From the NCBI GenBank assembly GCA_017608025.1, contig JAFCGM010000004.1, forward strand, positions 90,744 through 154,743: 64,000 nt of DNA, written 5' to 3'. Both the position numbers and the translations under genes were made by a program. The notes beneath the pieces were generated by a model that did no database searches, had not been told where the DNA came from, and saw only the letters and a list, made by a program, of their open reading frames with translations. This DNA comes from Candidatus Pacearchaeota archaeon (lineage in GTDB: Archaea > Nanobdellota > Nanobdellia > UBA10117 > JABICX01). Shown here piece after piece: positions 2,346-44,185 of this stretch (position 1 is its first letter; each line of letters starts with the position of its first letter).

Positions 2346-2347
2346 AA

Positions 2348-3635: not shown

Positions 3636-3673
3636 ACTATATGTTTATAAACTAGTTTTGTTTACTTTAAGCT

Positions 3674-21205: not shown

Positions 21206-23782
21206 ATGGACGAACTTCCCGAACAAAATCAGGAAATAATTGAAAAAAGAAAGAAAAAAATATTAAATTTCCTAAAAAAATTCTCAAAAGGAAAAGATTT
21301 TCTTGAAAATCCATTTGTAAGCATTGGCGCAATAATTTTCACAATAATTTTAGGAGTTTACATTCGAATTCAAAATCTTCCGCATCTTGCAAACAAATAC
21401 CTTCTCGGTCTTGACCCTTACTTTTTCTTTCGCTATGCTCAAACTCTTTTTGAGAAAGGTACTCTTCCAGTAATTGACTATATGCGTTATTCTCCAGTAG
21501 GCTACCCAACTGCAAAATTTAGTGTTTTAACTCATTTATTTGTTTATTCTTACAAAATTGCAAACCTATTTTATCCAATGACACAAAAACAATGGCACAT
21601 AATTTATCCTCCAGTTATAACTGCAATCTCTTTTGTATTTTTCTTTCTAATGCTTGCAAAGCTTTTCAATAAAAAAACCGCAATAATTGGAACAGCCCTT
21701 TTAGCAACAATTCCTGCTTATATATATAGAACTGGTGCAGGATTTGCTGACCACGAAGCTTTTGCCATGCTTTTCATGTTTGCAGCAATGTATTTTTTTG
21801 TCCTTGCATTCAAATCACTAAAAGCAAAGAAAATAATTATTTTTTCAATAATGTCTACAATTTCCGCATCTCTTATGGCTGCTTCATGGGGTGGAGTAAA
21901 ATTCTTAACAGTTTCACTAGCAATATTTTTGTTTACTCTCTCTTTCCTCTCAACTCTAAGCAAAAAGCAAATTATTTCCAGCAGCATATTTATTTTACTT
22001 TTTATCCCGCTAAGTTCTCTCACAACAACACTTTCAATCAAAATTTCTGCTTTAACTTCAATAGATAATCTTATTCTTCTGGCAGCACTTGGCTTTGTAA
22101 TCATAACTCAATTTGTAAAGCAAACAAAAAATCCAAAAATCAAAGAATATTTGTCAAAAACAAAACTGCCTAATTCAATAAACGGAACAATAATTTATAT
22201 AATTTTCAGCATTCCTGTTTTATTAATTTCAATTATAACAGGCATTTTTAATCCGCAGACAATCATAGAAAACCTCTTTGGTGTTGGACTTTCAAGATTT
22301 CAGACAACTGTTTCTGAAAGTATGGTGCCGCAAATCAAAGCTTCATGGATGTCTTCTAGCGCTTTTGGAACAATAACTTTTCTTTTAATATTCATAAGCG
22401 CAGTTTTCCTGATATATTGCATTTTCAAAAACTCAAAAAGAAATGCAGTTGTTTTCAGTTCAATAACTTCAATTTTCTTTTTGATTTTCATCGGAAGCAA
22501 TTATTCTGGAGATTTCCAGAGAAAAGCAATTGGTTACTTTCTTGCCCACTCTTACATGTATTTATTAATATTACTCTTTGCAGGAGCTGCAGTTTATTAT
22601 GTTTACATTTACAAAAAAAGCAAATCAAACTTTGAAAAATTTTCACAAATAAAATGGCAGAACATATTTATTCTTTCCTTCTTTTTAGTAAGCCTTCTTG
22701 TCGCAAAAGGAAGCACTCGACTTTTATTTGCACTGGCTCCTTTTGCAATGATTGTAATTGCCTTTTTCTTCTCAAAACTTATTGAAAAATCTCTGGCAAA
22801 CAAAAAAATAATTTGGATTTCGTTTGTGGTTGGAATCCTCTTTATTATTATAATTATAAGCAATTCAAAAGCAAGTTACATACTTAATTCATACGCTGGT
22901 TCTGGCTATCCTGGCCAATGGGAGTCTTCAATGACTTTCTTAAGAGAAAACACTTCTGAAGATTCTGTAATTGCTCATTGGTGGGATTATGGCTACTGGA
23001 CACAAACAGAAGGTAAAAGAACAACAGTTGGAGATGGTGGAAATCTTATGGGATGGAACCATCAGCTTGGAAGATATGCTATGACTGGAAAAAACGAAAC
23101 AGAATATTTAGCATACTTAAAGACACACAAAGTCACTCATCTTCTTTACTCTGAAGAGGAAATTGGAAAATATCATGCTTTCTCATTTATTGGTTCTGAC
23201 GAAAACCTAGATAGGGAAAGTACAATTGGAATTTTCAGCTTAAGAGATGTAAAAGAAGTAAGAAACGGAACTCGTTATATATATCAAAGCGCATGGGGGC
23301 TTGACAAGGATTATGTAATCGGAAATACTGTTTTTGAGCAAGGTGCAGACGCTTTGCTTGGACTTTCATATGACTTAAGAAACAACAAGACAGAAAATCC
23401 ACTAGCATACTTGTACAGAAACGGGCAGCAATACTCTTTCCCTGCAGAATGCGTGTGCTATGACTCAAAATGCAGGCACTATGAATCTAAAGAAAATTCT
23501 TTCCCTGGCTGCTTTGTAATTGCTCCATTCTTTTCACAAGAAAATGTTAATGAACGAGGAACAGCATTTTATTTGTCTCCAAAAGTTAATGGAGGATTGT
23601 TTGCAGAACTTTATATAAAAAACCAAAAACTGCCATACTTCAATGAAGTTTACAACGACAAAACACCTCTCGGGCTTTACAATGGAAGGCTTATTGGTCC
23701 AATAAGAATTTGGGAAGTTTCATATCCTTCTTGGGTTAAGGAAGAACCTAACAAATACATTAAAAGAAGTGTGTATGGCTAA
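21206..23782 (+). CDS. aglB: Archaeal oligosaccharyltransferase AglB (STT3 family).
   Basis: 13-TM N-terminal domain followed by a periplasmic domain carrying the diagnostic WWDYGYW motif. 858 aa. Confidence 0.85.
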   Translation: MDELPEQNQEIIEKRKKKILNFLKKFSKGKDFLENPFVSIGAIIFTIILGVYIRIQNLPHLANKYLLGLDPYFFFRYAQTLFEKGTLPVIDYMRYSPVGYPTAKFSVLTHLFVYSYKIANLFYPMTQKQWHIIYPPVITAISFVFFFLMLAKLFNKKTAIIGTALLATIPAYIYRTGAGFADHEAFAMLFMFAAMYFFVLAFKSLKAKKIIIFSIMSTISASLMAASWGGVKFLTVSLAIFLFTLSFLSTLSKKQIISSSIFILLFIPLSSLTTTLSIKISALTSIDNLILLAALGFVIITQFVKQTKNPKIKEYLSKTKLPNSINGTIIYIIFSIPVLLISIITGIFNPQTIIENLFGVGLSRFQTTVSESMVPQIKASWMSSSAFGTITFLLIFISAVFLIYCIFKNSKRNAVVFSSITSIFFLIFIGSNYSGDFQRKAIGYFLAHSYMYLLILLFAGAAVYYVYIYKKSKSNFEKFSQIKWQNIFILSFFLVSLLVAKGSTRLLFALAPFAMIVIAFFFSKLIEKSLANKKIIWISFVVGILFIIIIISNSKASYILNSYAGSGYPGQWESSMTFLRENTSEDSVIAHWWDYGYWTQTEGKRTTVGDGGNLMGWNHQLGRYAMTGKNETEYLAYLKTHKVTHLLYSEEEIGKYHAFSFIGSDENLDRESTIGIFSLRDVKEVRNGTRYIYQSAWGLDKDYVIGNTVFEQGADALLGLSYDLRNNKTENPLAYLYRNGQQYSFPAECVCYDSKCRHYESKENSFPGCFVIAPFFSQENVNERGTAFYLSPKVNGGLFAELYIKNQKLPYFNEVYNDKTPLGLYNGRLIGPIRIWEVSYPSWVKEEPNKYIKRSVYG

Positions 23783-23822
23783 ATACAAAACCTTTTAAGC
23801 ATTTTTACTAATATGAAATATT

Positions 23823-24824
23823 ATGGCGGAAATATTAATCATAAGCGCATTAGTAAGTTTTTTAATCACTTTAGCATTCACACCAAGAACAATCTCTTTT
23901 TTTAATAAAATAGGTCTCTCTGCAAAAGACATTCACAAAAAAAACGCTCCGCTTATTGCTCGCGGAGCAGGAATACCAGTTATTGTCGGAATATTCGCAG
24001 CCATATCTGCTGTAATTTTCATTCAGACTTTTATTCTAAAAAACTCAGAGCCAGTAATATCGCTTCTAGCAGGTCTATTAACTCTTTTAATAATAACAAT
24101 TTCAGGATTTATAGATGACTTTGCATCAATAAAAGACAAGTCAGCATACAAGGAAAATGAAAATGGTCGTCTTCCTCAATGGATTAAAATGATAATTGTT
24201 ATTCCAGCAGCAATCCCTTTAATGGTCATATCTGCAGGAACTTCAACAATGAATGTTCCTTTGCTTGGGCAAGTAAATTTCGGAATTCTCTATCCGCTTT
24301 TTCTGGTTCCTCTTGCTATTTTCGGTGCAGCAAACATGGTTAATCTCCTTGAAGGTCTTAATGGAACAGCATCTGGTCTTGGAATTATTTACACTGGAAT
24401 GCTTGGACTTTATGCTGCAGTTCATGGAAGGTATATAGCAGCCATCTTCGCATTTTCAGTCTTTGGTTCACTGCTTGCAATTTGGAGATTCCACAAAGCA
24501 CCTGCAAAAATTCTTGCTGGAGACTCTCTAACTTACTTGCTCGGAGCATCCCTTGCAATAATCGCAATCCTGGGAAACATGGAAAAAGCAGCACTAATTG
24601 TATCTATTCCTTTTGTAATTGAATTCATATTGAAAATGCGCGGAAAACTAAAAAAAGAAACTCTTGGCTACTTGCTCCCAAATGGAAACATTAAGTCAAA
24701 ATATTCAAAAATCTATTCTCTTCCACACATCTGGATGATTAAAGGAGATTTCACAGAAAAGCAAATAGTTTATCTTCTTATGAGTCTTGAATTAATCTTT
24801 TCATTATTAATTTGGGTGGTATAA
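23823..24824 (+). CDS. Polyprenyl-phosphate N-acetylhexosamine-1-phosphate transferase (MraY/WecA family; AglH-like) that initiates the dolichol-linked glycan.
   Basis: Motifs DIHKKNAPLIARGAGIPV, ISGFIDDF, MVNLLEGLNGTASGL. Confidence 0.7.
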   Translation: MAEILIISALVSFLITLAFTPRTISFFNKIGLSAKDIHKKNAPLIARGAGIPVIVGIFAAISAVIFIQTFILKNSEPVISLLAGLLTLLIITISGFIDDFASIKDKSAYKENENGRLPQWIKMIIVIPAAIPLMVISAGTSTMNVPLLGQVNFGILYPLFLVPLAIFGAANMVNLLEGLNGTASGLGIIYTGMLGLYAAVHGRYIAAIFAFSVFGSLLAIWRFHKAPAKILAGDSLTYLLGASLAIIAILGNMEKAALIVSIPFVIEFILKMRGKLKKETLGYLLPNGNIKSKYSKIYSLPHIWMIKGDFTEKQIVYLLMSLELIFSLLIWVV

Positions 24825-25594
24825 TGGACTTATCTTTAATAATTCCAGCATATAATGAAGAAAAAACAATTGAAAAAGTTGTTATGAATTACTATAAATT
24901 ATTTAAAAAAAAGAAACTGGATTTTGAAATAATCCTTTCAGTTGACGGATGCAAAGACAGAACACCGCAAATAGCAAAAAAACTTGCAAAAAAACACAAG
25001 CAAATAAAAACAAATTTTTCCAAAGAAAAAAGAGGAAAAGGCGGCGGAGTGTTCAGCGCATTTCCAAAAGCTAAAGGAAAATTCATTGGAATAACAGATT
25101 CTGATGAATCTGTTTCTCCTGAGCAATTTTATGAAATGTTTTCTCAAAAGCAAAACGCAGATGTAGTCATTGGTTCTCGATGGCTTCCGCAATCAAAAAA
25201 CATTGGCTCTTCTCTTTTTAGAAAATTCCTTGGACGCGGATTCAACTATTACATACGGCTGCTGTTTTTCCTTCCTTACAGAGACACGCAATGCGGCTCA
25301 AAAATAATAAAAAGAAAATTAATAAAGCCAATACAAAATCAGTTAAGAATTACAGATTGGGCGTGGGATATAAATCTCCTCTATCTTCTGAAAAAGCAGG
25401 AAGCAAAAGTAATGGAATACCCAATTACTTGGATAAATTCAGACAGGAAAAGCAAATTCAATTACAAAAAAGCAGTGCTTCAAATGGCACTCTCAACTCT
25501 TCGACTTAGATTAATTTATTCTCCAATTTCAAGACTCAGAATTCCTGGACTGAGAAAAGTTAAAGGAAAAATATACTGCTTGCTTGAAAATTAA
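24812..25594 (+). CDS. Family 2 glycosyltransferase (dolichyl-phosphate sugar synthase-like).
   Basis: GT-A fold N-terminus (LIIPAYNEE, DGCKD). Overlaps the upstream gene. Confidence 0.65.
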   Translation: MGGIMDLSLIIPAYNEEKTIEKVVMNYYKLFKKKKLDFEIILSVDGCKDRTPQIAKKLAKKHKQIKTNFSKEKRGKGGGVFSAFPKAKGKFIGITDSDESVSPEQFYEMFSQKQNADVVIGSRWLPQSKNIGSSLFRKFLGRGFNYYIRLLFFLPYRDTQCGSKIIKRKLIKPIQNQLRITDWAWDINLLYLLKKQEAKVMEYPITWINSDRKSKFNYKKAVLQMALSTLRLRLIYSPISRLRIPGLRKVKGKIYCLLEN

Positions 25595-25628
25595 AAACAA
25601 TTTTAAAGCTTAAAAAAATAATCTTAAT

Positions 25629-26738
25629 ATGAAAATTCTTGTCCTTAACTGGAAATCCTGGAAGGATTCTGAAGCAGGTGGAGGAGAACATAATGCATAT
25701 TATCTTTCAAAATATCTTATTTCTAAAGGAAATCAAGTAACATATTTTTGTAGAAAAAGCAAATCTTCTGAGCAAAAAAACATCATCCCAAAAAAGGACA
25801 GGAAAAACAGCATAAAAATAATTGAAAAGGGAAACAAATTAACTGTTTACATCTGGGCGATACTCTACTACATTTTCAAATTAAGAAAAAACACTAATTT
25901 CATTGTAGAATACTGCAACGGAATTCCGTGGTTCACTCCGATTTTTTCAAGAAAACCAAAAATTCTGATTATGCACCATGTTCTGGGAAAACTCTGGTTT
26001 AAAATAAAAGAGCCAGGATTTCCGTTTTATTATTTAGGATATTTCATAGAAAATAAATTAATGCCCGTAATTTACAAAAAAACAAAAACAATAGCAGTTT
26101 CTCCCAGCACAAAAAAAGATTTAATTAAAATTGGTTTCAAGAAAAAAAATATAACAGTATCATATAGTGGAATTTCTGGAAAATTATCTAAAGGAATAAA
26201 AAGCAGAAAACCTCTAATTGTGTATGTTGGTAGAATAAAAAGTTACAAGAACATTGAAAAAATGATTGATGTTTGTAAAGAATTAAACATCTGCGGCGAG
26301 ATAATTGGCCAAGGAAATCACCTGCCAAAATTAAAAAAATACACTAAAAAAATAAAAGCAACAAATCTAATAAAATTCCGGGGATTTGTGTCTGAAAATG
26401 AAAAAATAAAAGCATTCCAAAAAGCTTGGATTTTCATAATGCCCTCTTTAAGAGAAGGATGGGGTCTAACTGCAATTGAGGCTAATAAATGCGGAACTCC
26501 AGTTATTGCATTCAATGTAAAGGGATTGAAAGATGCTATTAAAAACAATTATTCTGGATACCTATGCAAAAACTATAACCAAATAAAACAAAAAGCAAAA
26601 GAGATAATAAAAAATAAAAATCTGAGAAAAAAGCTAGAAAAAAGCTCAGAAAAATGGGCTTCTCAATTTAATTGGGAAAATTATTCAGAAAAAATTTACA
26701 ATGAGATTGAAAAAATTGCTAAGAAAAATAATAAGTAG
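25629..26738 (+). CDS. GT-B fold glycosyltransferase (GT4 family).
   Basis: C-terminal EGWGLTAIEANKCGTPVIA (E-X7-E) motif. Confidence 0.7.
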   Translation: MKILVLNWKSWKDSEAGGGEHNAYYLSKYLISKGNQVTYFCRKSKSSEQKNIIPKKDRKNSIKIIEKGNKLTVYIWAILYYIFKLRKNTNFIVEYCNGIPWFTPIFSRKPKILIMHHVLGKLWFKIKEPGFPFYYLGYFIENKLMPVIYKKTKTIAVSPSTKKDLIKIGFKKKNITVSYSGISGKLSKGIKSRKPLIVYVGRIKSYKNIEKMIDVCKELNICGEIIGQGNHLPKLKKYTKKIKATNLIKFRGFVSENEKIKAFQKAWIFIMPSLREGWGLTAIEANKCGTPVIAFNVKGLKDAIKNNYSGYLCKNYNQIKQKAKEIIKNKNLRKKLEKSSEKWASQFNWENYSEKIYNEIEKIAKKNNK

Positions 26739-27978
26739 TTATTCAGAACTGTTGAAAATGAGTTCTGTCTTCATTACAGGTATCTTTATCTTTAACTTTT
26801 TCAATTATTTGTTTCAGTTAGTATCTGCAAGATTTCTTGGTCCTGCATTTTACGGGGAAGTCGGAGCAATTCTTTCAATAATGTATTTGTTTACAATCCC
26901 CAGTGAAATAATAGGAACATCAATAATAACATTTGGTTCAAAATTGAAAGTTAAAAAGCAGTTCGGAAAATTGAAATCTTTTTTTAAGTTCTCAATAAAA
27001 ACCACAGCAATATTTTTCTCAGTATCCACATTAATCCTTCTTTTGCTAACTCCTTTAATTTCAAATTTCCTAAAGCTGTCATCTACTATACCTTTAATTA
27101 TATTCTTTATATTCATTTTAACAATGATTCCTACACTGACAAACCGCGCCTTTATGCAGACTTCATTGAAATTCACTTCCCTTAGTGTAAATATAGTAGC
27201 AGAATCTCTGCTTAAATTTTCCTTAGCTCTTTTGTTTCTCTTTTTGGGCTTTAAAATAACAGGAATCTTTGTTGCTGTTCTGATGGCAGGATTAATAACA
27301 GCAATCCTTTCCTTTATTCCAATAAGAAAAATATTTTCTTACAAAGCAAAGAAAATTAACACCAAAAAGATACTAACTTCATCAAAAAGCATTTCTCTAA
27401 TTTTAATTGGAATAACTGCAATGTACTCTGTAGATATTCTTCTTGCAAAGCATTTCCTTCTTCCAGAGCAAGCAGGATTTTATGCTGCTCTTTCATTGTT
27501 TGGAAAAACAATTTTCTTCGGTTCTTTTGCAGTAATAAAAGTCATGTTTGCGCAGCTCTTTGAAAAGAGCAAGTTAGAAAAAAGAAAGCTTGTTCTAAAA
27601 GCACTTTCACTGCTAATTCTTGGCTCAGCAATAGCTTTATTTGTCTTTTTGATTTTCCCAGCACAGCTTGTTACGCTCCTGCTCGGAAAAGAATATCTTC
27701 CAATGGCAAAATACCTTTTCAAATTCGGTCTTGCAATGACTTTGTTTTCAATATCATATTTAATAGCTCATTACAACATATCAAAGCAAAGCAAGAAAGG
27801 GACAATTATCTTCCCGGTTTTCGCACTTATTGAAATTATTTTAATAATCTTAATGAGTCAATCTCTAGCATCAATAACAAATGCTATTTTAATAACAATG
27901 TCTCTACTGTTTGTTGTAACAATAGTGTTGCCTGGAATAAAAAAAATAGGAGAAATACTGAAAAATGAAATTAGTTAG
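26701..27978 (+). CDS. Oligosaccharide flippase (Wzx/MOP superfamily). Probable true start at MSSVF (26758).
   Basis: ~12 TM helices, no soluble domain, in a glycosylation cluster. Confidence 0.55.
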   Translation: MRLKKLLRKIISSYSELLKMSSVFITGIFIFNFFNYLFQLVSARFLGPAFYGEVGAILSIMYLFTIPSEIIGTSIITFGSKLKVKKQFGKLKSFFKFSIKTTAIFFSVSTLILLLLTPLISNFLKLSSTIPLIIFFIFILTMIPTLTNRAFMQTSLKFTSLSVNIVAESLLKFSLALLFLFLGFKITGIFVAVLMAGLITAILSFIPIRKIFSYKAKKINTKKILTSSKSISLILIGITAMYSVDILLAKHFLLPEQAGFYAALSLFGKTIFFGSFAVIKVMFAQLFEKSKLEKRKLVLKALSLLILGSAIALFVFLIFPAQLVTLLLGKEYLPMAKYLFKFGLAMTLFSISYLIAHYNISKQSKKGTIIFPVFALIEIILIILMSQSLASITNAILITMSLLFVVTIVLPGIKKIGEILKNEIS

Positions 27979-28762
27979 TATAGTAATTCCAACATACAAC
28001 AATGAAGAAACAATAGAAAAATGCATAAAAACACTTAAGAATCAAACATATCTAAAAATAGAAATAATTGTTGTTGACAATCTAAGCAAAGACAAAACAC
28101 CGCAAATCTGCAAAAAATTCAAAGTAAAACTAATTTCAAAAAAATCAACAAGAACTCAAGCAAGGAACATTGGAATAAAAAAAGCTCGCGGAGATTTTAT
28201 TTTCAACATTGACTCTGACATGTACTTCCCAAAAAATTTAATTTCAGAATGCATCAAAAAAATTGAAAAATATGATGCTTTGTGTGTTGATGAAAAATCA
28301 ATAGGCACTGGATTCTGGTCAAAAGTTCGTTCATTTGAAAGATCTCTTTATTCTGGAAATGAAAATATAGATGCTGCTCGATTTGTAAAAAAGAACATAT
28401 TTACAAAAATAAACGGTTATGATGAAAAGTTAAATTTTGGCGAAGACTGGGACATACATTCTAGAATAAAAAAAGCAGGTTTCAAAATTGGTCGCCTAGA
28501 AAATCCAAAAATACTTCATGATGAAGGAAAATTAACATTAAAAAAAGCATACAAGTCAAAAAAATTCTACGGAAAATCTATGAAAAAATTCTTTGAAAAA
28601 AACCCGCAAAGAAAATCCCAAATCTACAGCGCAAAAAATATCATTGTAAATGTAATTCTTAAGAATTGGAAGAAAATAATTTTCCACCCAATTCTATTCA
28701 TAGCAGCAGCAATCCTGAAAACAACAGAATACATCGGCGCCTGGAGGGGAATAAAAAAATGA
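27965..28762 (+). CDS. Family 2 glycosyltransferase.
   Basis: N-terminus VSIVIPTYNNEETIEKCI, DSD motif. Confidence 0.7.
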   Translation: MKLVSIVIPTYNNEETIEKCIKTLKNQTYLKIEIIVVDNLSKDKTPQICKKFKVKLISKKSTRTQARNIGIKKARGDFIFNIDSDMYFPKNLISECIKKIEKYDALCVDEKSIGTGFWSKVRSFERSLYSGNENIDAARFVKKNIFTKINGYDEKLNFGEDWDIHSRIKKAGFKIGRLENPKILHDEGKLTLKKAYKSKKFYGKSMKKFFEKNPQRKSQIYSAKNIIVNVILKNWKKIIFHPILFIAAAILKTTEYIGAWRGIKK

Positions 28763-29844: not shown

Positions 29845-31370
29845 TTATTATACTCAAAAACATAAATAATTGGCTGCCCGTTTCTCTTATAAACTTTAAC
29901 AGGAATAAAAACGCCTTGTTCTTGCTTTTTCTGGAAATATTCAATCTGCCACTGAGATTTTTCTCTCAATTCATAAAAAGTCAAAACAACAAATTTCGGA
30001 TTGTATTTTGCAAGTGCTTCATCAAACTCTGTAGTATTTTGCAAATCATTAATAGTTATTGTTTTTCTTTCAGAATAATAAACATTCTGAGGTAATGCGG
30101 CATTAAAAATAATGTCTTCTGGATTAGAATTTTCTTTAATCCATAAACTTGAATCTCTTGTTTCAGAATAAGTATCTGTTTTTAAATTAATTAAATTGTT
30201 TGCTTCTTGCAATTGAAAAAATCCTGCAAAAATCAAAACTCCTGCAATAAAAATAAAGCCAATTATTTTGCCAGATTTCTCAGGAGAAATAAACTCTTTA
30301 ATTTTTCTATAAATAAAATCCAAACCATATGCAAAAAATAAAGCTAAAATTGGAAAAACAACAATTAAATATCTATTATCTTCTGATCCTACATAAACAA
30401 GATAAACAAAAATTAAAGAAAAAGACAACATCAAAAGACAAATAAATTTAATTTTACTATTTTTCTTTATTAAATCATATCCTATAAAAAGCGAGAAAAG
30501 AGCAAGCATTAAACCAAATATAAAAAATAAAAAAAAATATTGTGGAAAATAACTAAACAAAAAACCAATATTATTTTTAATTACATACAAATAAGAATCT
30601 GGTCCTGGCGCGCCAATTCCTCCTTGCCCAGATAAAGACTTAAACATGCCTTCAAAAAAAGTACCATAATACAAAAACAAAGAAAGAAAATATATTCCAA
30701 ACCCAAAAATTCCAATTCCTCCAGCAATCCAAAAATCCTTATTTTTAAAAACATTAAGTCCTCTTGTTATTAAAAAGTAAATTATAACTGAAACAATTAA
30801 AATACCTGCACTAAATTTTACTAAAAACGCTATAACAAGCAAAAATGAAAGAATCCAAAGAAATTTCCCATTATCTGTTTTTTCATACTTAACTAAAACA
30901 AAAATACACAAAAGCCAAGCAAAAACACTTGGAACTTCCATAAAAATTCTTGTAACTGAAAAAATCTCAAGCCAGAAAACAGACATCAAAGCAGAGGCAA
31001 TCAAAGCAATTCTTTTGTTAAACATCTCTTTTCCTAAAAAGTAAATCAAAACAACAGACCCCATTGAAACCAAAACATTCAAAAACCGAATAAAGTTCTC
31101 TCCCAAGCCAACCCTAAAAATGCCTGCATGAATCAAATTGTAAAAACTAAACCTTATTGAATCAATTGTATATGGAACACCATAAGCAATATGCTTTGCA
31201 ATCGCAACATAATCTGCCTCATCCCACCAAAGCGGTTGGTTCAGAGTCCTGAAAAAATAAAACAGGCGTACTGCAAACGCAAAAATTAATATTGCAAGAA
31301 AAACCTTATTGTAATTATCTGACCAAAATGCTTTTGCACTATCTTGCAATTTTTCCAAATTAATCTTCAT
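29841..31370 (-). CDS. GT-C fold membrane glycosyltransferase (ArnT/PMT/GT39/GT83-like).
   Basis: 509 aa with >10 TM helices. First-loop acidic motif PLWWDEADY typical of GT-C enzymes. Confidence 0.5.
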   Translation of the reverse strand: MKINLEKLQDSAKAFWSDNYNKVFLAILIFAFAVRLFYFFRTLNQPLWWDEADYVAIAKHIAYGVPYTIDSIRFSFYNLIHAGIFRVGLGENFIRFLNVLVSMGSVVLIYFLGKEMFNKRIALIASALMSVFWLEIFSVTRIFMEVPSVFAWLLCIFVLVKYEKTDNGKFLWILSFLLVIAFLVKFSAGILIVSVIIYFLITRGLNVFKNKDFWIAGGIGIFGFGIYFLSLFLYYGTFFEGMFKSLSGQGGIGAPGPDSYLYVIKNNIGFLFSYFPQYFFLFFIFGLMLALFSLFIGYDLIKKNSKIKFICLLMLSFSLIFVYLVYVGSEDNRYLIVVFPILALFFAYGLDFIYRKIKEFISPEKSGKIIGFIFIAGVLIFAGFFQLQEANNLINLKTDTYSETRDSSLWIKENSNPEDIIFNAALPQNVYYSERKTITINDLQNTTEFDEALAKYNPKFVVLTFYELREKSQWQIEYFQKKQEQGVFIPVKVYKRNGQPIIYVFEYNN

Positions 31371-31415
31371 ACCAAAACAAAGAACTTATTAATTTATAAG
31401 AATTTATCTATTAAT

Positions 31416-31988
31416 ATGAAATCTTCAAAAAAACTACATTTAGGATGTGGAATAGATATAAAAAAAGATTATATTAACGTTGACATTGTAAAAAACAAAG
31501 GAGTTGACAAAGTAATTGATTTAAATAAATATCCTTGGCCTTTCAAAGAAGACCAATTTAATGAAATAATTATTAATCATACATTAGAACACCTTGACGA
31601 TGTTATAAAAGCACTAAACGAAATGTGGAGAATAACAAAAAAAGGTGGAAAAATCGAAATTAGTGTCCCGTATTTCGCATCCGCACTCACATTCAGAGAC
31701 TTAACACACAAACATGTATTTACATATACTTCTTTTGACAATTGGGACATAAAGAATTTCAAAAAAGGAATTTACGTAACACATATGAATAAAAAAATGA
31801 GATTCAAAATCGAAAAACGAAGAATTAACTTTTTTGGGAAAAATAGAGGAATTATTAGCATAATCACTAACATTCTTACAATTATTCCTGATTTCCTAAT
31901 AAACCTCGCACCAAAAATCTATGAAAGATTTTTCTTTTTTTACTTTCCAGCTACAAGCATAGAATATATACTCGAAGTTGTAAAATAA
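31416..31988 (+). CDS. Class I SAM-dependent methyltransferase (Methyltransf_11-like).
   Basis: LHLGCG motif I and EHL motif. The ATG at 31416 is in-frame inside the ORF-track TTG-start ORF. Confidence 0.55.
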   Translation: MKSSKKLHLGCGIDIKKDYINVDIVKNKGVDKVIDLNKYPWPFKEDQFNEIIINHTLEHLDDVIKALNEMWRITKKGGKIEISVPYFASALTFRDLTHKHVFTYTSFDNWDIKNFKKGIYVTHMNKKMRFKIEKRRINFFGKNRGIISIITNILTIIPDFLINLAPKIYERFFFFYFPATSIEYILEVVK

Positions 31989-31989
31989 T

Positions 31990-32904
31990 TTACTTTGTGC
32001 TCTCAATCCTTTCCCAATTGTCTGTGTATTTCTTTCTTCGTATTTTTGTGTCATAAAAAACCAAAATCCAGATCAAAAGTCGAAATCCAAAAAGCAAAAA
32101 TGTCCAGAAAAGCTCTTTCAAATTCCTTACATATCTCAATGCTCTAAAGCTTCCATATTTAACTTCATTCCAAAATGACTTCATCCTCGGAACCCTTAAA
32201 ATATCAACATATCTTTCCAAAGTCTCGTGCGCCTTTGCAGTCCTCCTTCTTTGCTTTATCCAATCCCCAAGCGTCTCTGGATTTTTGACATAAACTTTAG
32301 CATTCGGAGCATAATCAATTTTCCATCCTTTTTCATAAAACAAATACGGAATTACTGAATCTTCTGCAACATCAAGCGGGATCTTATCCACAATTCCTTT
32401 CCTAAAACCAAACAAATACCCTGAACACTCTAAAAAACCTTTTTTTGCCTGCCTTCTTCTTTGCTCATGCGCACCAGCCTCAAAAAGCAGCCAGGACCAG
32501 TATCCTAACATCGTCTTTCTTGAATCCTGTGGAATCGGCCTTCCTGAAACAACACCTACATTTTTCTTTTGAAATTCTTTAATAAGCTCGTTAATTGCAT
32601 TCTTGCCTAAGTAAACATCTCCGTCAGTAAAAATCCAAAAATCTCCTTTAAGTTTTTTGAAAATCAAATTCAAAGCATAAGATTTTCCTTTGCCAGGGTC
32701 TTTGAAATACTTAACTTGATTATGCTTCTTCTCATATTTTTTAATTATATCTGAGGTTTCTTTATCTGGCGCAGCAACAATTAATTCATACTCATCTTTA
32801 ATTTTCTGATTAATAATAGACTTAATAGCCTTACCAATTGTTTTCGGCTCTTTAAAAGCAGTAATTACAATTGAAAGCTTAATTTTCTGAGACTTCATCT
32901 TCAA
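31990..32904 (-). CDS. Family 2 glycosyltransferase.
   Basis: LSIVITAFKEPKTI and FTDGD (DXD) motifs. Confidence 0.7.
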   Translation of the reverse strand: MKMKSQKIKLSIVITAFKEPKTIGKAIKSIINQKIKDEYELIVAAPDKETSDIIKKYEKKHNQVKYFKDPGKGKSYALNLIFKKLKGDFWIFTDGDVYLGKNAINELIKEFQKKNVGVVSGRPIPQDSRKTMLGYWSWLLFEAGAHEQRRRQAKKGFLECSGYLFGFRKGIVDKIPLDVAEDSVIPYLFYEKGWKIDYAPNAKVYVKNPETLGDWIKQRRRTAKAHETLERYVDILRVPRMKSFWNEVKYGSFRALRYVRNLKELFWTFLLFGFRLLIWILVFYDTKIRRKKYTDNWERIESTK

Positions 32905-33508
32905 TTATTTCTGCTAAGGTATGGTATATTAATAAATGTGCCTCTTGAATTCTTGGTGTTGAATTTGAAAGAACAACTATATTCAAATCAGTAAATTCTT
33001 TTAGTTTTCCTCCATCTCTTCCAAGCAAACCAATTATTTTAATTCCTTTTTCTTTTGCCAGTTTAGCAGCACTTAATAAATTTGCAGAATTTCCACTTGT
33101 AGATATCAAAAACAAAATATCTCCTTCTTTTCCAATAGCTTCAAGTTCTCTTGAAAACTGCTCATCATAATTTATGTCATTAGACCAAGCAGAAACAACT
33201 GCAGGATTTGTTCCAAGAGCAACTGCTGAAATCGCTTTTCTCTTCTTGTTGAAAAAAGAATTAACCAGTTCAGCAGTAAAATGTTGCGCATCTGCCATTG
33301 AACCGCCGTTTCCAGCAGTAATAATTTTATTACCTCTTTTAACACAGGAAATCATTTCTTCTGCAGCCTCACAAATATTTAACTTTGAATCAGAAATGAG
33401 ATTGATTACTTCCTTGTGTTCTTTCATATTTATTAAAAATTTTTCAATTATTTTCATTTTTTCCCCTCCAATAATCCAAAGAATCCTTGATTGTTTGGTC
33501 AATTCCAA
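32879..33508 (-). CDS. gmhA: Sedoheptulose-7-phosphate isomerase GmhA (SIS domain). Probable true start MKIIEKF (33457).
   Basis: ITAGNGGSMADAQHFTAEL and LISTSGNS SIS motifs. Confidence 0.75.
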   Translation of the reverse strand: MELTKQSRILWIIGGEKMKIIEKFLINMKEHKEVINLISDSKLNICEAAEEMISCVKRGNKIITAGNGGSMADAQHFTAELVNSFFNKKRKAISAVALGTNPAVVSAWSNDINYDEQFSRELEAIGKEGDILFLISTSGNSANLLSAAKLAKEKGIKIIGLLGRDGGKLKEFTDLNIVVLSNSTPRIQEAHLLIYHTLAEIIEDEVSEN

Positions 33509-34418
33509 TCTCTGGTTTCCATCCAGTTTCCTTAATAAGCTTTGAATTGTCTCCTAGAATTATTGGTTCATCACTAGGCCTTAATTTTTCCTTGTCCATC
33601 TCAACTTTGATTTCATTTTTTGAAATTGAAATCAGTTTGTCTAAAATATATTGAATTTTAATTGCCTTGCTTGAGCAGAAATTGTAAACCTCTCCATACT
33701 TCGCCTTTTCAGTTGCCAGCCAGAAACTACGAATCTGGTCGCGAACATCAGTTATATCTCTTTCTGCTTCTAAATTTCCAACTTTAATTACTGCCTCTTG
33801 CTCTCCAGCCTCAATCTTCGCAACTTGAGATGAAAAATCAGCAAGAGCATCTCCAACTTTTCTTGGCCCTGTTGTATTAAAAATTCTTGCAGCAATAGTT
33901 CTTATTCCAAAATTCTTGAAATACTGGTATGTCAAATTCTCCTGTGCAACTTTTGAAATCCCATATGGATGCAATGGCTTAAGAATATGTGTTTCCTTAA
34001 CTGGAACTTCTTCTGGAGTAACTAATCCATATTCAGCTGAAGAGCATGCAACAAAAACAATTGGATTTAATTTTAATTTCTTGACAGCTTCAAAAATATT
34101 TATTGTTCCATTAACATTAATATCTATTGTAAGCCTTGGCTTTTTCCAGGAAACTGTTGGATAAGACTGTGCAGCAAGATGAAAAATTTTGTCAGGCATT
34201 GCTTTTTTAATTGCTAAAAAAACATCCTCTTTTTTTCTGACATCGCACTCAATCATTTCCTCTGTCTTATCTGAATACTCTGAAATGTCAACTGTAGGAT
34301 TGTAATATGTTCCGTAAATTTTTACATCAGGATAATTTTCAGCAACAAATTCAATCAAATGGCTTCCAATAAATCCTCCTGCACCTGTAATCAAAACATT
34401 CATTCTCTTGCCCTCCAA
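33444..34418 (-). CDS. GDP-sugar 4,6-dehydratase (Gmd/DmhA-like SDR).
   Basis: GAGGFIGSHL Rossmann motif, YGISK catalytic YxxxK, Gmd-like FNTTGPRKVGD...GNLEAERD segment. Confidence 0.7.
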   Translation of the reverse strand: MEGKRMNVLITGAGGFIGSHLIEFVAENYPDVKIYGTYYNPTVDISEYSDKTEEMIECDVRKKEDVFLAIKKAMPDKIFHLAAQSYPTVSWKKPRLTIDINVNGTINIFEAVKKLKLNPIVFVACSSAEYGLVTPEEVPVKETHILKPLHPYGISKVAQENLTYQYFKNFGIRTIAARIFNTTGPRKVGDALADFSSQVAKIEAGEQEAVIKVGNLEAERDITDVRDQIRSFWLATEKAKYGEVYNFCSSKAIKIQYILDKLISISKNEIKVEMDKEKLRPSDEPIILGDNSKLIKETGWKPEIGIDQTIKDSLDYWRGKNENN

Positions 34419-35443
34419 GTGTAAATGCCCCTGTCTTCAAACCGAACAGGAAGTTTCGAAATTGTTGTTTCATAATCAATTGCAACTTTTTGTAATTCCT
34501 TTAGCAAAGTTAATTTCTGAATCGGCTCTTTAACAATGAAATACATAAATCCTCCTCCGCCAGCACCAGAAACCTTTCCGCCAATAGCACCATTTTTCTT
34601 TGCAGTATCATATATTTTATCTAAAAATTCATTTGTAACTCCATCAGAAACTTTTCTTTTCTCCTGCCAGGAAAGGTCAATATATCTAGCAAATTCATCA
34701 ATGTCTTCTTTCTCCAATGCCTCTTTCATCTTGTAAGCATACTCTTTTATTTTATGAAGACATTCCACATTTTGCTTTTTCTCCAAATTCTTCTTAAGCT
34801 CATCCTGAAGTTTTCCAGAAACCCGCACTTTTCCAGTAAAGCACAAAAGAATTCTTGCCTGTAACTCATTTTTAAAACTATTGGAAACTCTAAGAGGAGA
34901 GACATGAACACTTCCGTCTTTTCTATATTCAATCCAATTAAACCCTCCAAAAGAAGATGCAAACTGATCCTGATAACCTCCTTGAATTCCAAGCTCTTTT
35001 CTTTCAATTTCATAAGCAAGATTTGCAATATCATATTTTGTAGATGCTAAATTCAAAGGAGAAGCAATTCCTCTACCGGTTCCATCCCAAATTACGCCAA
35101 TCAAAGCCACATTAACAGCAGAAGAAGTTCCTAACCCAGAACCTGGCGGAGCTTCGCAATGAATGCAAAATTCTCCGCCAATAGGAACTTTTAGTTTTTT
35201 AAGAGTCGTTTCAATTAAATTCGTATTTTCATAAAGTGAAAGGTTTTCAATTTTCTTTTTAAGCTGAACATCTGGCGCATTAATTTTTGTAATGCTGTTA
35301 TTCTGCTTTTTCCATGTAGCATATGCATACACATTAATTGCAGCACTTAAAGTAACTCCGCCAAATTCTGTGCAATAAGGAACAACATCTGTTCCTCCTC
35401 CGCCAAAACCTAAACGAAGAGGTGCTCGACTTCTTATAATCAT
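34400..35443 (-). CDS. GHMP-family sugar kinase, D-glycero-D-manno-heptose-7-phosphate kinase (HddA)-like.
   Basis: RAPLRLGFGGGGTD N-terminus and PPGSGLGTSSA ATP-binding motif. Located next to gmhA. Confidence 0.7.
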   Translation of the reverse strand: MIIRSRAPLRLGFGGGGTDVVPYCTEFGGVTLSAAINVYAYATWKKQNNSITKINAPDVQLKKKIENLSLYENTNLIETTLKKLKVPIGGEFCIHCEAPPGSGLGTSSAVNVALIGVIWDGTGRGIASPLNLASTKYDIANLAYEIERKELGIQGGYQDQFASSFGGFNWIEYRKDGSVHVSPLRVSNSFKNELQARILLCFTGKVRVSGKLQDELKKNLEKKQNVECLHKIKEYAYKMKEALEKEDIDEFARYIDLSWQEKRKVSDGVTNEFLDKIYDTAKKNGAIGGKVSGAGGGGFMYFIVKEPIQKLTLLKELQKVAIDYETTISKLPVRFEDRGIYTWRARE

Positions 35444-35557
35444 GTTAAGTATGAAAAAGTAATACCTATTTAAAAAGATTGTTGTTTTTTGGCAGACGAA
35501 AAGCAGATACTTTTATAAAGTAATACTTTTTCATAATATCAATGAAAAATAAATTTA

Positions 35558-35674
35558 GTGTGGAGGTTCTTTTCTAAAGGTTTTCCGCCAGAAACGAACG
35601 TAGTTCGTGCCTATGAAATAGTGCTTTTTCTAAAAGAGCTGTTTGAGGTGAAGACCTTTTCCAAAGGGATTCAA
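35558..35674 (+). repeat. Repeat-family element covering the 5' leader of the next gene.
   Basis: Contains the ~53-nt core shared with 15403-15455 and an end gaggtgaagaccttttccaaagggattcaa. The ORF-track start at 35558 lies inside it. Confidence 0.6.
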
Positions 35675-36409
35675 ATGAAGAAAAAGATTGCAATTGCCCT
35701 AAGTGCTGAAATCCTTGATGAAGTGGATTTTATTTCAAAAAAAGAAAGTCTATCAAGAAGCCAGGAAATTGAAAAACTCATCTTAGAAGGACTGAAAAAA
35801 ACTGAAGTGAAAACTGCGGTATTGCTAATACACAAAAATAAAAAAGAAGTTTTATTCAAAAACAGCAACGAACTGCTAAAGAAGCAATATGAATTTCTTA
35901 AAAAAAACCGAATTCAAAATATAATATTCGTTTCTGAATTCAAAGAAAGTGAAAAGCGAAAAATAGAGCAAATTTTTCAAGAAATTAACTTAAAAATAAT
36001 ATCTGACAAATCAAATGGCACTGCTCAAGCTCTGAAAAAAGCAAATAAACACATCTTTTCAGATTTCATACTAATTAACGCAGACACGTACAATGAATTT
36101 GACTTAAAAAAAATGATTTCATTCCACAAAGAAACAAAAACAACAGCAACTCTTGGCCTTATAAACAGTGATTCTCCAGAAAAATATGGCTCAGTAATTC
36201 TAGATGGAACAAAAATAATAAAATTCAGTGAAAAAGCAAAACCTCTTTCAAATATAATCAGCGCAGGAATTTATATATTAAAGCCCAAAATCTTTGCAAG
36301 CATCAAAAATAAAAAATCTCTTGAAAAAGAAATCTTTCCAGAACTCGCTGAATCGCGAGAAATTCGCGGATTTTTTACTTTCGGCCAATACCAACATTTC
36401 GGAAACTAA
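35675..36409 (+). CDS. Sugar-phosphate nucleotidyltransferase (HddC/RmlA-fold) with an atypical N-terminus: an RHH-like segment replaces the canonical GGxGTRL loop.
   Basis: GTAQAL, LINADTY, YGSVILD and ISAGIYIL motifs of the NTP_transferase family. Start at ATG 35675 (MKKKIAIALSAEILDEVD...). Confidence 0.5.
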   Translation: MKKKIAIALSAEILDEVDFISKKESLSRSQEIEKLILEGLKKTEVKTAVLLIHKNKKEVLFKNSNELLKKQYEFLKKNRIQNIIFVSEFKESEKRKIEQIFQEINLKIISDKSNGTAQALKKANKHIFSDFILINADTYNEFDLKKMISFHKETKTTATLGLINSDSPEKYGSVILDGTKIIKFSEKAKPLSNIISAGIYILKPKIFASIKNKKSLEKEIFPELAESREIRGFFTFGQYQHFGN

Positions 36410-37886
36410 AAATTCTTTTTCTTATTTTATATAGAATTTCCAAATCTTTTTTTTCTAATGCCTTTGTAACATACAAAAGCAAAGCATAAATAACACAAAA
36501 CAAAACTCCAAGAAAAAGCAAAACAAAAACACTGCTCGCATTAGTCATTTCCTTTACAAAGTAAACAATTCCAAAAGGAACTAAAGCAGAAATAAAAATA
36601 AGCACATACCTAAAATTAAAAAAGCGAATTTTTGGAACAAACTTCTTAACAAAAATCAAAGACAAAATCATAATAATAAAATACGCAAACGAAGTTGAAA
36701 TTGCTCCGCCAACAATTCCGTATTTTTGAATCAAAAAGTAATTTAAGATTACATTAAAAAAAGTTGCAGTCATAGCAATAATTAAAACATACTTGCTTTT
36801 GCCAAGCATTTTAAGAATATTTAGGTTTGGAAAACTCATGTTGTACAAAAAAAATCCTGCTGCCAAAACTGAAAGAGAAATTGCTCCGCCAACATATTCA
36901 TTTCCAAACATTATGCTTAGAATTTGACTTGAAAACAAAACAAAAATCAAAGTCAATGGAAAAATAAACAGCAAAATCCATTTACTAACTACTTTGTAAA
37001 TCCCGGAAATAGACTTGTTCTTTGAAAATCTCTCTGTTATTAATGGAAAAAACATCGACATAAGCGCCATCGGAAAAAGATTAATCAACGCTGCTGTGGG
37101 AAGCGCAGCATTGTAAATTCCAGTAGCTTCAGAAGAAATAAAATGCCCAATCATCAAAACATCGATCTTTCCAATAATAATATTTAAAATTCCAAAAAGC
37201 AATAATGGAAATGAATAAGAAAAAATCCTACCAAAAAAATGAGTCTTTTTCTTGAAAATATTTGAATTTTTAAAAAGAAAATACATTAAAACTAAAGCTG
37301 AAACAAAAACAGACAACAAATAAGCAATTGCTGCCCCGAAAACACCATATGAAAAAAAGAAAACAAAAGCAATTGCAAAAACAAATTTTACTCCATGCCA
37401 AACAAACTCAGAAACAAATGAAGAAATTGGAGCTTTTTTCAATCCAAACAAACTCCTTGAAAAAACTTTCATCAAAACTAAAAACGGCAAAGATAAAACA
37501 ACAATCCTAAGAACAGGAATCAAAAGAGGTTCATTAAACAAAAAGGAAATCTGAGGTGAAAAAGAAAAAAGTACAACAGTGAAAATAATACTTAAGGAAA
37601 AAGAAATCAGTGCTGTATCAAAAATAACTCCTCTAATCCTCTCTTTGTTTTTCTTTCCATTATAATATGCAACAAATCGTTCTGCTCCTTCTTGAAGTCC
37701 TAAAAGAGAAAGCAAAAGTAAAAACTCCATAATCGCAAATGAAATTGACAAAACACCATACTCTCTTGTTCCAATCCTTGCTACAAAAAGAGTAAACAAA
37801 TATGAAAATAATTTACCAAAAACCAAGGAAACAAATACAAGCAAAGTTCCTTTTGCAATAAAGCTTGCGTCTTTTGAGCTGCTCAT
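36375..37886 (-). CDS. Polysaccharide/oligosaccharide flippase (MOP/Wzx-like).
   Basis: 503 aa, ~14 TM helices. Confidence 0.55.
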   Translation of the reverse strand: MSSSKDASFIAKGTLLVFVSLVFGKLFSYLFTLFVARIGTREYGVLSISFAIMEFLLLLSLLGLQEGAERFVAYYNGKKNKERIRGVIFDTALISFSLSIIFTVVLFSFSPQISFLFNEPLLIPVLRIVVLSLPFLVLMKVFSRSLFGLKKAPISSFVSEFVWHGVKFVFAIAFVFFFSYGVFGAAIAYLLSVFVSALVLMYFLFKNSNIFKKKTHFFGRIFSYSFPLLLFGILNIIIGKIDVLMIGHFISSEATGIYNAALPTAALINLFPMALMSMFFPLITERFSKNKSISGIYKVVSKWILLFIFPLTLIFVLFSSQILSIMFGNEYVGGAISLSVLAAGFFLYNMSFPNLNILKMLGKSKYVLIIAMTATFFNVILNYFLIQKYGIVGGAISTSFAYFIIMILSLIFVKKFVPKIRFFNFRYVLIFISALVPFGIVYFVKEMTNASSVFVLLFLGVLFCVIYALLLYVTKALEKKDLEILYKIRKRIFSFRNVGIGRK

Positions 37887-43946: not shown

Positions 43947-44112
43947 TTTCCTCCTTTATATTTTCAACACTATTTTTTGGATGAAACTTTTTTTCAAAAC
44001 CCAAAACAGGAATATCAAAATCAACTGACAACTCAATATCCTTTTTTAAAAAACTCAAAAAATCTTCTTGATTAACAAACTCTTTTTTCAAAAGTTCTAA
44101 ATCACAAAAAAA

Positions 44113-44185
44113 GCACGGGGCGGGATTTGAACCCGCAATCTTACGGGCTGCAACCGTACGCCTTACCGGATTTGGCCACCCGTGC
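44113..44185 (-). tRNA. tRNA-Cys (anticodon GCA).
   Basis: Minus-strand cloverleaf GCACGGG-TG-GCC..GGC-G-TACGG-TTGCAGC-CCGTA-AGATT-GCGGG-TTCAAAT-CCCGC-CCCGTGC. 73 nt, directly upstream of cysS on the same strand. Confidence 0.85.

Follow-up and report, generated by a model that had tools for sequence, protein, structure and literature searches.

The locus at positions 21206-37886 of the 64-kb stretch of contig JAFCGM010000004.1 analysed here (the window) raises the question of whether an archaeal island for protein N-glycosylation, built around the oligosaccharyltransferase AglB, also carries the genes for an activated heptose, and what the nucleotidyltransferase-like gene beside its heptose genes does. 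An earlier note on this DNA had read four genes of the island as a route to GDP-heptose and 6-deoxyheptose. This was confirmed in part: the isomerase and the kinase were upheld, but besides the phosphatase GmhB the guanylyltransferase step was found to be missing too, and the short-chain dehydrogenase/reductase (SDR) was Rmd-like. We propose a joint model with a partial heptose operon (hddA-SDR-gmhA-GT2c) inside the AglB island, a divergently transcribed gene, here called RHH-NTP, whose product would act as a regulator derived from a dead enzyme, and GmhB and HddC acting in trans. A rough probability of 0.6 is given to this model, which is built from homology and from reasoning on sequence.

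Gene identities were obtained from Pfam, NCBIfam and PDB searches and from a scan for hydrophobic and transmembrane (TM) segments. Loci of relatives are designated by L-numbers, and the relatives of RHH-NTP came from metagenome-assembled genomes (MAGs) of Woesearchaeota and Nanoarchaeota. The features on which the argument depends are as follows.

35675..36409, plus strand: RHH-NTP, 244 amino acids (aa), predicted N-terminal ribbon-helix-helix (RHH) followed by a sugar-1-phosphate (sugar-1-P) nucleotidyltransferase fold (PF00483, RHH profiles, AlphaFold2 (AF2) model)
35520..35536: predicted operator O1, GTAATA-CTTTT-TCATAA, weaker (two mismatches), facing the RHH-NTP gene
35449..35465: predicted operator O2, GTATGA-AAAAG-TAATAC, between a TATA-like box (35467-35477) and the hddA start codon (35441-35443)
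34400..35443, minus strand: HddA-type D-glycero-D-manno-heptose-7-P 1-kinase of the GHMP family, first gene of the operon (best match NF049969)
33444..34418, minus strand: extended SDR of the GMD/RMD clade with the motif S-S-A-E-Y-G (PF16363)
32879..33508, minus strand: GmhA-type sedoheptulose-7-P isomerase, likely start 33457 (best match TIGR00441)
31990..32904, minus strand: GT2c, a family 2 glycosyltransferase (GT2) of the Glyco_tranf_2_3/GT21-like type, last gene of the operon (Pfam; one C-terminal TM helix)

The RHH-NTP protein

The ATG at 35675 is the conserved start of RHH-NTP; a longer, 283-aa reading frame opens with GTG at 35558, and its additional N-terminal part was absent from all homologues. 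Database gene calls extend the protein to this GTG (283 aa), which is probably an over-extension. About 130 nt lie between the putative promoter/operator and the ATG (35558-35674), and this segment is absent in L056, whose complete intergenic region measures 126 bp.

Residues 1-45 of RHH-NTP gave weak matches to RHH_5 (E 0.004) and RHH_1 (E 0.07), both below cutoff, and the homologue P0004 matched PF01402 (RHH_1) with 24 bits, above the cutoff of 20.5. The RHH motif KIAISID..LL..ID...RSRSQAIE.LL was kept in 13 members. An AF2 model from a 45-sequence alignment (predicted local distance difference test, pLDDT, 91.6; a six-sequence alignment gave pLDDT 58 and was discarded) showed an N-terminal extended segment and two helices, followed by the nucleotidyltransferase fold. 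The protein matched PF00483 with E 9e-20, the match beginning only at profile position 20, and Pfam and PDB alignments begin at fold position 20-30. Alignment with active enzymes showed that the GGxGTRLxP loop has suffered a 9-residue deletion in RHH-NTP, with LLIHKN in its place. In sugar-1-P nucleotidyltransferases of the RmlA/GMPP family this loop carries the Arg and Gly that hold the nucleoside triphosphate phosphates. Besides, the second metal-binding Asp, which belongs to the C-terminal W/F-x-D-x-G motif (W-x-D-x-G), is replaced by His (QYQHFGN). The loop deletion and the Asp-to-His change were found together in all 13 Woesearchaeota-type members, and the residues that replace the loop vary across the clade (IHKN, LSRAH, ISKKD, IKEQH).

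The Asp is present in HddC of L001, in NTP2 of L017 and in the RHH-NTP of L018. The latter, from a Patescibacteria MAG (L018 5810-6643), is almost intact and keeps GGKGQKMRP and FDVG, and the RHH-NTP of a Micrarchaeota MAG (L017 10001-11507) has a half-degenerate loop and is followed by an intact NTP-transferase paralogue. These forms suggest that the fusion was at first an active enzyme as well as a repressor, and that catalysis was lost later.

In Foldseek comparisons RHH-NTP was closest to GDP-mannose pyrophosphorylases (E 1e-18), GMPPA (7d72_A/B), KJC2 (8yre_A) and HddC, with eIF2B also among the neighbours; the TM-score against Yersinia HddC was 0.73-0.74 when normalised to the target. 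The fold named in the earlier note, an NTP-transferase, is thus supported by PF00483, and its identity as HddC is contradicted by the predicted RHH N-terminus, the loop deletion and the His for Asp. RHH-NTP is most likely a nucleotidyltransferase paralogue whose catalytic site has degenerated and which has been joined to a DNA-binding domain of the RHH type. A toxin-antitoxin reading of the combination of RHH and nucleotidyltransferase was also considered, and it was rejected because the fold is of the sugar-1-P type (PF00483, Foldseek) and not that of a Pol-beta/MNT nucleotidyltransferase.

Predicted operator palindrome and regulation

RHH-NTP is transcribed divergently from the heptose operon in the window, and the intergenic regions of RHH-NTP loci were found to share a 17-bp palindrome of 6-5-6 organization, GTATGA-N5-TMATAC. 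The window contains the two copies listed above, of which O2 is the sole exact match and O1 follows immediately on the TATA-like TTTTATAAA at 35511-35519. With at most one mismatch the palindrome occurs three times in the 64-kb window, compared to 0.18 expected, and two of the three occurrences are O2 read on either strand. Exact copies precede the start of RHH-NTP by 106-158 nt in L001 to L005, L009, L011 and L013, and none was found in 46 other loci. When one mismatch was allowed, the palindrome was present upstream of the RHH-NTP gene in 16 of the 18 loci of the family, with five background matches in 831 kb. The same layout of two operators, one for each divergent promoter, was found in L056. 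A site between TATA box and transcription start is the classical position for an archaeal repressor.

RHH-NTP is most likely a repressor or sensor, predicted to bind a ligand and DNA and so to repress both the heptose operon and the gene that encodes it. We further propose, tentatively and at odds a little short of even, that RHH-NTP stands for a family of pseudoenzyme transcription factors not described before, in which an HddC-like enzyme would have lost catalysis, kept its pocket, and come to sense a heptose-nucleotide or heptose-phosphate and to repress at GTATGA-N5-TMATAC. The same reading would give an evolutionary series that begins with the apparently active fusions of Patescibacteria, passes by the intermediate form of Micrarchaeota and ends in the dead sensors of Woesearchaeota. 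If true, this would be the first case in which a regulator of precursor supply for archaeal N-glycans responds to a nucleotide sugar. The pair of regulator and operator is compact (a 244-aa protein and a 17-bp palindrome) and may represent a new class of nucleotide-sugar sensor made from a dead enzyme.

Heptose operons facing RHH-NTP in relatives

In L001/L006 and L015, RHH-NTP was found divergent from genes for a B12-binding radical-SAM enzyme, HddA, SDR, GmhA, GmhB, HddC and an orthologue of GT2c, and in L009 it faces GmhB-HddA. In L003 to L005 and L013 it faces an ADP-type set composed of a GT9 heptosyltransferase, PfkB(+HAD), an NTP/CTP-transferase-like protein and GmhA. In L016 it faces radical-SAM, GT2c, GmhA, HldE (PfkB + CTP_transf_like), PMT_2 and GT9 genes, and an AglB-GT9 pair is located approximately 1-2 kb away on the other side. 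RHH-NTP thus faces HddA-type and HldE/PfkB-type operons alike, and therefore tracks heptose operons of either activation chemistry. As judged from these gene arrangements, heptose genes adjoining aglB are a recurrent feature of the Woesearchaeota-type lineage.

The closest relative of the island was L056, in which RHH-NTP is divergent from an HddA-type operon as in the window and in which HddA and GT2c are 70% and 79% identical to those of the window. The L056 cluster likewise encodes neither GmhB nor HddC, and it also includes PMT_2. For six gene pairs (HddA, SDR, GmhA, GT2c, RHH-NTP and PMT_2) the ratio of nonsynonymous to synonymous substitution rates (dN/dS) between L056 and the window was 0.12-0.34. 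The same gapped layout and the low dN/dS together indicate that the cluster is held by selection without GmhB or HddC inside it.

In L056 the RHH-NTP/HddA/SDR unit (418-6072) is tandemly duplicated over approximately 2.8 kb, with no difference apparent between the two regulator copies or between the two intergenic regions; either a true amplification or an artefact of the assembly may be behind it. The same locus has an extra 402-aa protein with no Pfam match between SDR and GmhA. In most relatives a gene for a B12-binding radical-SAM enzyme opens the heptose operon (L001 5544-7013; L015 5261-6649; L016 8469-9848; L003 to L005), and it is absent from the operon of the window and from L056. The enzyme could be a C-methylase or another heptose-modifying enzyme.

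GmhA, HddA and GT2c

GmhA matched PF13580 (E 1e-24) and TIGR00441 (178.7 bits, below the equivalog cutoff of 209.45). Among other SIS families DiaA reached 112 bits, and no match to KpsF/GutQ was found among the NCBIfam profiles. All of the top 13 PDB matches were phosphoheptose isomerases, the best being 1tk9 (E 5.7e-45). HddA has the GGGGTD N-terminus and both the N and C domains of GHMP kinases, and scored 274.8 bits against NF049969 (cutoff 600), compared to 80.8 for mevalonate kinase and 53 for galactokinase. Its PDB matches were the heptose kinases 3k85, 4n3o and WcbL 4usk (E 1e-67 to 1e-61), and many of the listed database homologues carry the source name heptose-7-P kinase. The assignments of the SIS protein to GmhA and of the kinase to the HddA type, both made in the earlier note, were thereby upheld (TIGR00441, NF049969, PDB matches). 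A kinase grouping with mevalonate kinases or galactokinases and an SIS protein grouping with KpsF/GutQ had been named beforehand as the outcomes that speak against them, and neither was seen in the profile searches. The families SIS_2, GHMP kinases, GDP_Man_Dehyd and NTP_transferase were all matched, and no HAD match was found among the scanned reading frames of the window. By these comparisons GmhA and HddA are divergent members of their own families with which no other family competes, and the heptose reading of both stands.

Full-length orthologues of GT2c (45-79% identity) were found beside heptose genes in L056, L058, L016, L001 and L015, and this synteny makes it a candidate heptosyltransferase.

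The SDR

The gene between hddA and gmhA had been proposed to encode a Gmd-like GDP-sugar 4,6-dehydratase, and this proposal was not supported: the best solved relative is Rmd (2pk3), and the Glu of the dehydratases is lacking. Among PDB matches the reductase Rmd (2pk3) scored 232 bits, the Campylobacter jejuni GDP-heptose 4,6-dehydratase DmhA (7us5) 160 bits, and GMDs approximately 85-95 bits; against TIGR01472 (gmd) the score was 106 bits, with a cutoff of 415. The fingerprint of GMDs is [ST]SE...Yx3K with Glu as acid/base (nucleotide-sugar dehydratase review, PMC8987622 Table 1). In a residue-level alignment the SDR reads S-S-A where DmhA has S-S-E and GMD has T-S-E. Its orthologues read T-S-G-E (T-S-G in L001), S-S-A-E or S-S-A-Q (L058), with no acid kept at either position. 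From these residues the SDR is predicted to carry out redox chemistry at C4 of an NDP-heptose, as an epimerase or a reductase, and not 4,6-dehydration. A 6-deoxyheptose product is unsupported, because the SDR is closest to Rmd and is without the Glu of [ST]SE.

A natural fusion of SDR and GmhA (510 aa) was found in L058 (11047-12579) and also in L059, with HddA upstream and a GmhB-like HAD protein downstream in L058. The fusion of the two proteins in one lineage ties the SDR functionally to heptose metabolism.

The missing GmhB and HddC

In L001 and L015, GmhB and an intact HddC are encoded exactly between gmhA and the GT2c orthologue, the place at which gmhA overlaps GT2c by 26 nt in the window. 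Neither a HAD protein nor a second PF00483 protein was found among the Pfam-scanned open reading frames (ORFs) of at least 120 aa in the window (the scan left aside short ORFs at 2339-3635 and 8277-9552), and no DxDxT motif was found in the 37 listed ORFs outside the island. The remark in the earlier note that no GmhB is evident in the window was thus correct, with no HAD Pfam match and no DxDxT. The island lacks both GmhB and HddC, and we infer that both are supplied from elsewhere in the genome. There is a precedent for a heptose locus without gmhB in the capsule locus of C. jejuni (PMC10680097). A HIT protein (41739-42431) and a metallophosphoesterase (49054-49656) were considered as fillers of the missing steps and were set aside, since in no relative does either show linkage or synteny with heptose genes.

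Single-polypeptide HddC-GmhB fusions (NTP_transferase + HAD, approximately 400-430 aa) were found to be extremely common in bacterial metagenomes (P0017-P0134), and some of them add an SIS domain (P0119) or a domain of the PRK/uridine-kinase type (PF00485; P0070, P0083 and P0084).

Setting and other genes of the island

The island consists of 15 contiguous genes and is bounded by two SpoIIM-like membrane proteins and by RPA/RadA. The heptose operon lies in it on the minus strand, tightly packed in the order hddA-SDR-gmhA-GT2c and opposite to the aglB block. The other genes are as follows.

21206..23782, plus strand: AglB oligosaccharyltransferase, 858 aa, with a multi-TM N-terminal domain (PF02516 STT3, E 3e-18)
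23823..24824, plus strand: polyprenol-phosphate sugar-1-P transferase (PNPT) of the WecA/AglH/MraY superfamily, multi-TM, the likely initiating enzyme (PF00953 Glycos_transf_4, 101 bits)
24812..25594, plus strand: GT2 glycosyltransferase, soluble (PF00535, E 1e-23)
25629..26738, plus strand: GT4-type (Glycos_transf_1) glycosyltransferase (PF00534, E 9e-36)
26701..27978, plus strand: Wzx-like flippase 1, multi-TM (PF01943, PF13440)
27965..28762, plus strand: GT2 glycosyltransferase (PF00535, E 2e-32)
28666..29844, plus strand: GT4-type glycosyltransferase (PF00534, E 6e-28)
29841..31370, minus strand: PMT_2 GT-C membrane glycosyltransferase, using lipid-phosphate-sugar donors (PF13231, E 7.5e-15)
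31344..31988, plus strand: S-adenosylmethionine (SAM)-dependent methyltransferase (PF08241, PF13489)
36375..37886, minus strand: Wzx/MATE-like flippase 2, multi-TM (PF13440, PF01943, PF01554)

In AglB, WWDYG occupies residues 592-596, over 10 segments are hydrophobic, and the PF02516 match was above cutoff; the core domain PF21436 scored 21.4 bits, under its cutoff of 23. The score against TIGR04154 was 66 bits (cutoff 450), and AglB is therefore not of the archaeosortase-associated subtype. It showed 35% identity to AglB of the Woesearchaeota MAG L016. Homologues of the PMT_2 GT-C adjoin heptose genes in L056 (61% identity over 358 aligned residues) and L016 (29%, E 1e-51). As had been read from the letters, the island thus begins with a WWDYG-bearing AglB and an AglH/WecA-like initiating transferase (PF02516, PF00953), and the three GT2s, one GT-C, SAM methyltransferase and two Wzx-like flippases were all recovered by Pfam; of the three GT4s proposed, only two were found (25629-26738 and 28666-29844).

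The GC content of the window is approximately 33%, and it falls to 0.28-0.30 across 26000-32000, the part of the island that encodes glycosyltransferases, flippase and GT-C, compared to approximately 0.33 in the flanks. A dip of this kind is common in exchangeable glycan loci. Archaeal housekeeping genes are also present in the window, among them those for SecDF, RNase HII, several aminoacyl-tRNA synthetases, RadA, RPA, LonB and Hel308, as well as Hef, the PolD small subunit, Cdc6/Orc1 and a type-IV-pilus ATPase set. As part of the explanation favoured here, the locus is probably a chromosomal N-glycan assembly island of a low-GC, Woesearchaeota-like DPANN archaeon, the placement being taken from the relatives.

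The two SpoIIM-like (PF01944) membrane proteins are paralogous, are encoded directly upstream of aglB (19086-19988 and 20332-21174), and have near-identical N-termini (MVLESIIP...). Outside the island, a 60-bp unit is tandemly repeated at 44325-44461 without any mismatch (2.3 copies, 100% identity). The repeat is located approximately 140 bp upstream of the minus-strand gene for tRNA-Cys (44112-44185), yields a spurious 178-aa ORF with a repeated peptide, and may be a duplicated promoter region.

Proposed model and alternative explanations

Homology shows a lipid-linked glycan that is begun by PNPT, lengthened by the GT2 and GT4 enzymes, flipped by the Wzx-like proteins and moved to Asn by AglB. 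Homology likewise shows that GmhA turns sedoheptulose-7-P into D-glycero-D-manno-heptose-7-P and that HddA phosphorylates the latter to the alpha-1,7-bisphosphate. A phosphatase and a nucleotidyltransferase encoded elsewhere would then complete activation, the Rmd-like SDR would epimerise or reduce the nucleotide-heptose at C4, and the membrane-anchored GT2c would, as its synteny suggests, hand the heptose on to a lipid-linked acceptor. The outer face may be where the syntenic PMT_2 GT-C and the second Wzx are active. RHH-NTP would bind the palindromes between the TATA boxes and the starts of hddA and of its own gene, and would tune hddA-SDR-gmhA-GT2c and itself to a heptose-nucleotide or heptose-phosphate held in its remnant pocket, in which GTA, NGD and EK are kept.

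Several points weigh against this model. GmhA and HddA both score under the NCBIfam equivalog cutoffs. The function given to the SDR depends on the fingerprint argument, and Rmd itself retains the Glu, so that the fingerprint discriminates imperfectly. RHH-NTP keeps the GTA and EK motifs and the NGD Asp, the latter being invariant in the 45 aligned sequences, and residual or unusual catalysis is possible; DNA binding, ligand and catalytic loss are each deduced from sequence. The supply of GmhB and HddC from elsewhere is proposed with 64 kb of the genome read, and gene neighbourhood is what places the heptose on the glycan transferred by AglB and not on a glycolipid or other polymer.

In the alternative that survives best, the heptose is bound for another glycoconjugate (glycolipid, O-glycan or polysaccharide) and Wzx 2, GT2c and the PMT_2 GT-C form a separate branch. 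GT2c does resemble GT2/GT21 enzymes with lipid acceptors, PMT_2 enzymes include protein O-mannosyltransferase-like proteins, the operon and the aglB block are read from different strands, and a second flippase is encoded in the island itself. This alternative is nevertheless considered unlikely, as AglB adjoins a GT9 heptosyltransferase and heptose genes in L016 (Woesearchaeota) and the whole set in the window forms one unbroken run that no unrelated gene interrupts.

RHH-NTP could also be a bifunctional trigger enzyme of the kind of PutA or BirA, at once a non-canonical heptose-1-P nucleotidyltransferase and a repressor, and only GmhB would then be missing. This is distinctly unlikely given that the 9-residue deletion removes the phosphate-holding Arg and Gly, that the residues in its place are not conserved in the clade, that the D-to-H change co-occurs with the deletion, and that L001, L015 and L017 keep a separate intact enzyme. 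What speaks for a trigger enzyme is that neither the window nor the L056 cluster has another NTP-transferase, yet purifying selection is seen; that RHH-NTP still has the NGD Asp and the motifs GTA and EK; and that the apparently intact RHH-NTP of the Patescibacteria MAG means that the ancestral fusion may have been catalytic.

The model of the earlier note, in which the four genes encode GmhA, HddA, a GDP-heptose 4,6-dehydratase and HddC, agrees with the Pfam families of all four proteins (SIS_2, GHMP kinases, GDP_Man_Dehyd and NTP_transferase), with DmhA (7us5) as second-best PDB match of the SDR, and with Yersinia HddC among the structural neighbours of the NTP domain. It is made quite improbable by an NTP-like protein that is without GGxGTRL loop and metal-binding Asp and bears a predicted RHH domain, by relatives that have a separate intact HddC in addition to RHH-NTP, and by an SDR without the [ST]SE Glu that is nearer to Rmd than to DmhA or GMD. 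That the operon is a decaying remnant left by deletion of gmhB and hddC, with no activated heptose made, is highly improbable: at the corresponding place L001 and L015 do carry the two genes that the window lacks, but all ORFs are intact, the same layout is found in a relative with approximately 70% protein identity and dN/dS of 0.12-0.34, and operator and promoter elements are conserved.

The preferred model, a partial heptose operon in an AglB island under control of RHH-NTP and with GmhB and HddC in trans, would bear on a field in which, to our knowledge, very little is known on the regulation of archaeal N-glycans or on the surface glycans of DPANN archaea. DPANN archaea depend on cell-cell contact with their hosts. 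The loci compared here give genomic evidence for heptose glycans as a recurring trait of AglB islands in Woesearchaeota, made by a GDP (HddA) or an ADP (HldE) route. They also call for caution in annotation, as the labels GDP_Man_Dehyd and NTP_transferase would yield a false call of a complete 6-deoxyheptose pathway.

Comparison with known systems

The island as such appears to belong to a known kind of locus, and the RHH-NTP regulator family appears to be undescribed. Heptose is present in archaeal surface glycans or predicted from their loci: the N-glycan of Thermoplasma acidophilum carries D-glycero-D-galacto-heptose and heptose has been modelled on pili of Thermoplasmatales (PMC11407970, PMC12448462), so that the statement in the earlier note that no archaeal N-glycan with heptose is known is outdated. 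ADP-heptose clusters have been predicted in glycan loci of 'Iplasma' and of Methanococcus maripaludis KA1/JJ (PMC3750248, PMC12667266). In contrast to these predictions (ADP, HldE route), the window has an HddA (GDP-type) kinase, belongs to a DPANN lineage, and has its heptose genes directly contiguous with aglB.

Compared to bacterial HddA/GmhA heptose modules, the module of the window is without GmhB and without a loop-bearing HddC throughout the 64 kb, is placed inside an archaeal AglB island, and has an Rmd-like SDR between hddA and gmhA. The phosphatase gene is located outside the cluster in the C. jejuni capsule locus as well (PMC10680097). With the GDP-6-deoxy-heptose enzymes DmhA/WcbK and DmhB/Rmd, the SDR of the window shares the GMD/RMD clade (PF16363), but it has S-S-A and not [ST]-S-E, no partner dehydratase is encoded, and a 6-deoxy product is unsupported.

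In Haloferax volcanii, the AglD/AglR/AglS system makes Dol-P-mannose by a GT2, flips it by a Wzx-like protein, and adds it by a GT-C outside the cell. The window has a trio of the same protein types (GT2c, Wzx2 and PMT_2 GT-C) beside its sugar-supply genes, and this trio recurs in L056 and L016. The likeness is one of protein type, GT2c being Glyco_tranf_2_3/GT21-like and not clearly DPM1-like.

In the literature searched, no description was found of a catalytically dead nucleotidyltransferase that is joined to an RHH and has a conserved operator. RHH-NTP shares with human GMPPA, Arabidopsis KONJAC and eIF2B gamma/epsilon the fold, the loss of catalytic residues and the retention of most of the ligand pocket. 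Those proteins regulate by protein-protein contacts, whereas the apparently dead domain of RHH-NTP is fused to a predicted RHH and accompanied by a conserved operator, which implies transcriptional control. NikR, MetJ and PutA join an N-terminal RHH to a small-molecule-binding or enzyme domain and act at palindromic operators, a plan that RHH-NTP is predicted to share; it would differ from them in having a sugar-1-P nucleotidyltransferase fold as its effector domain.

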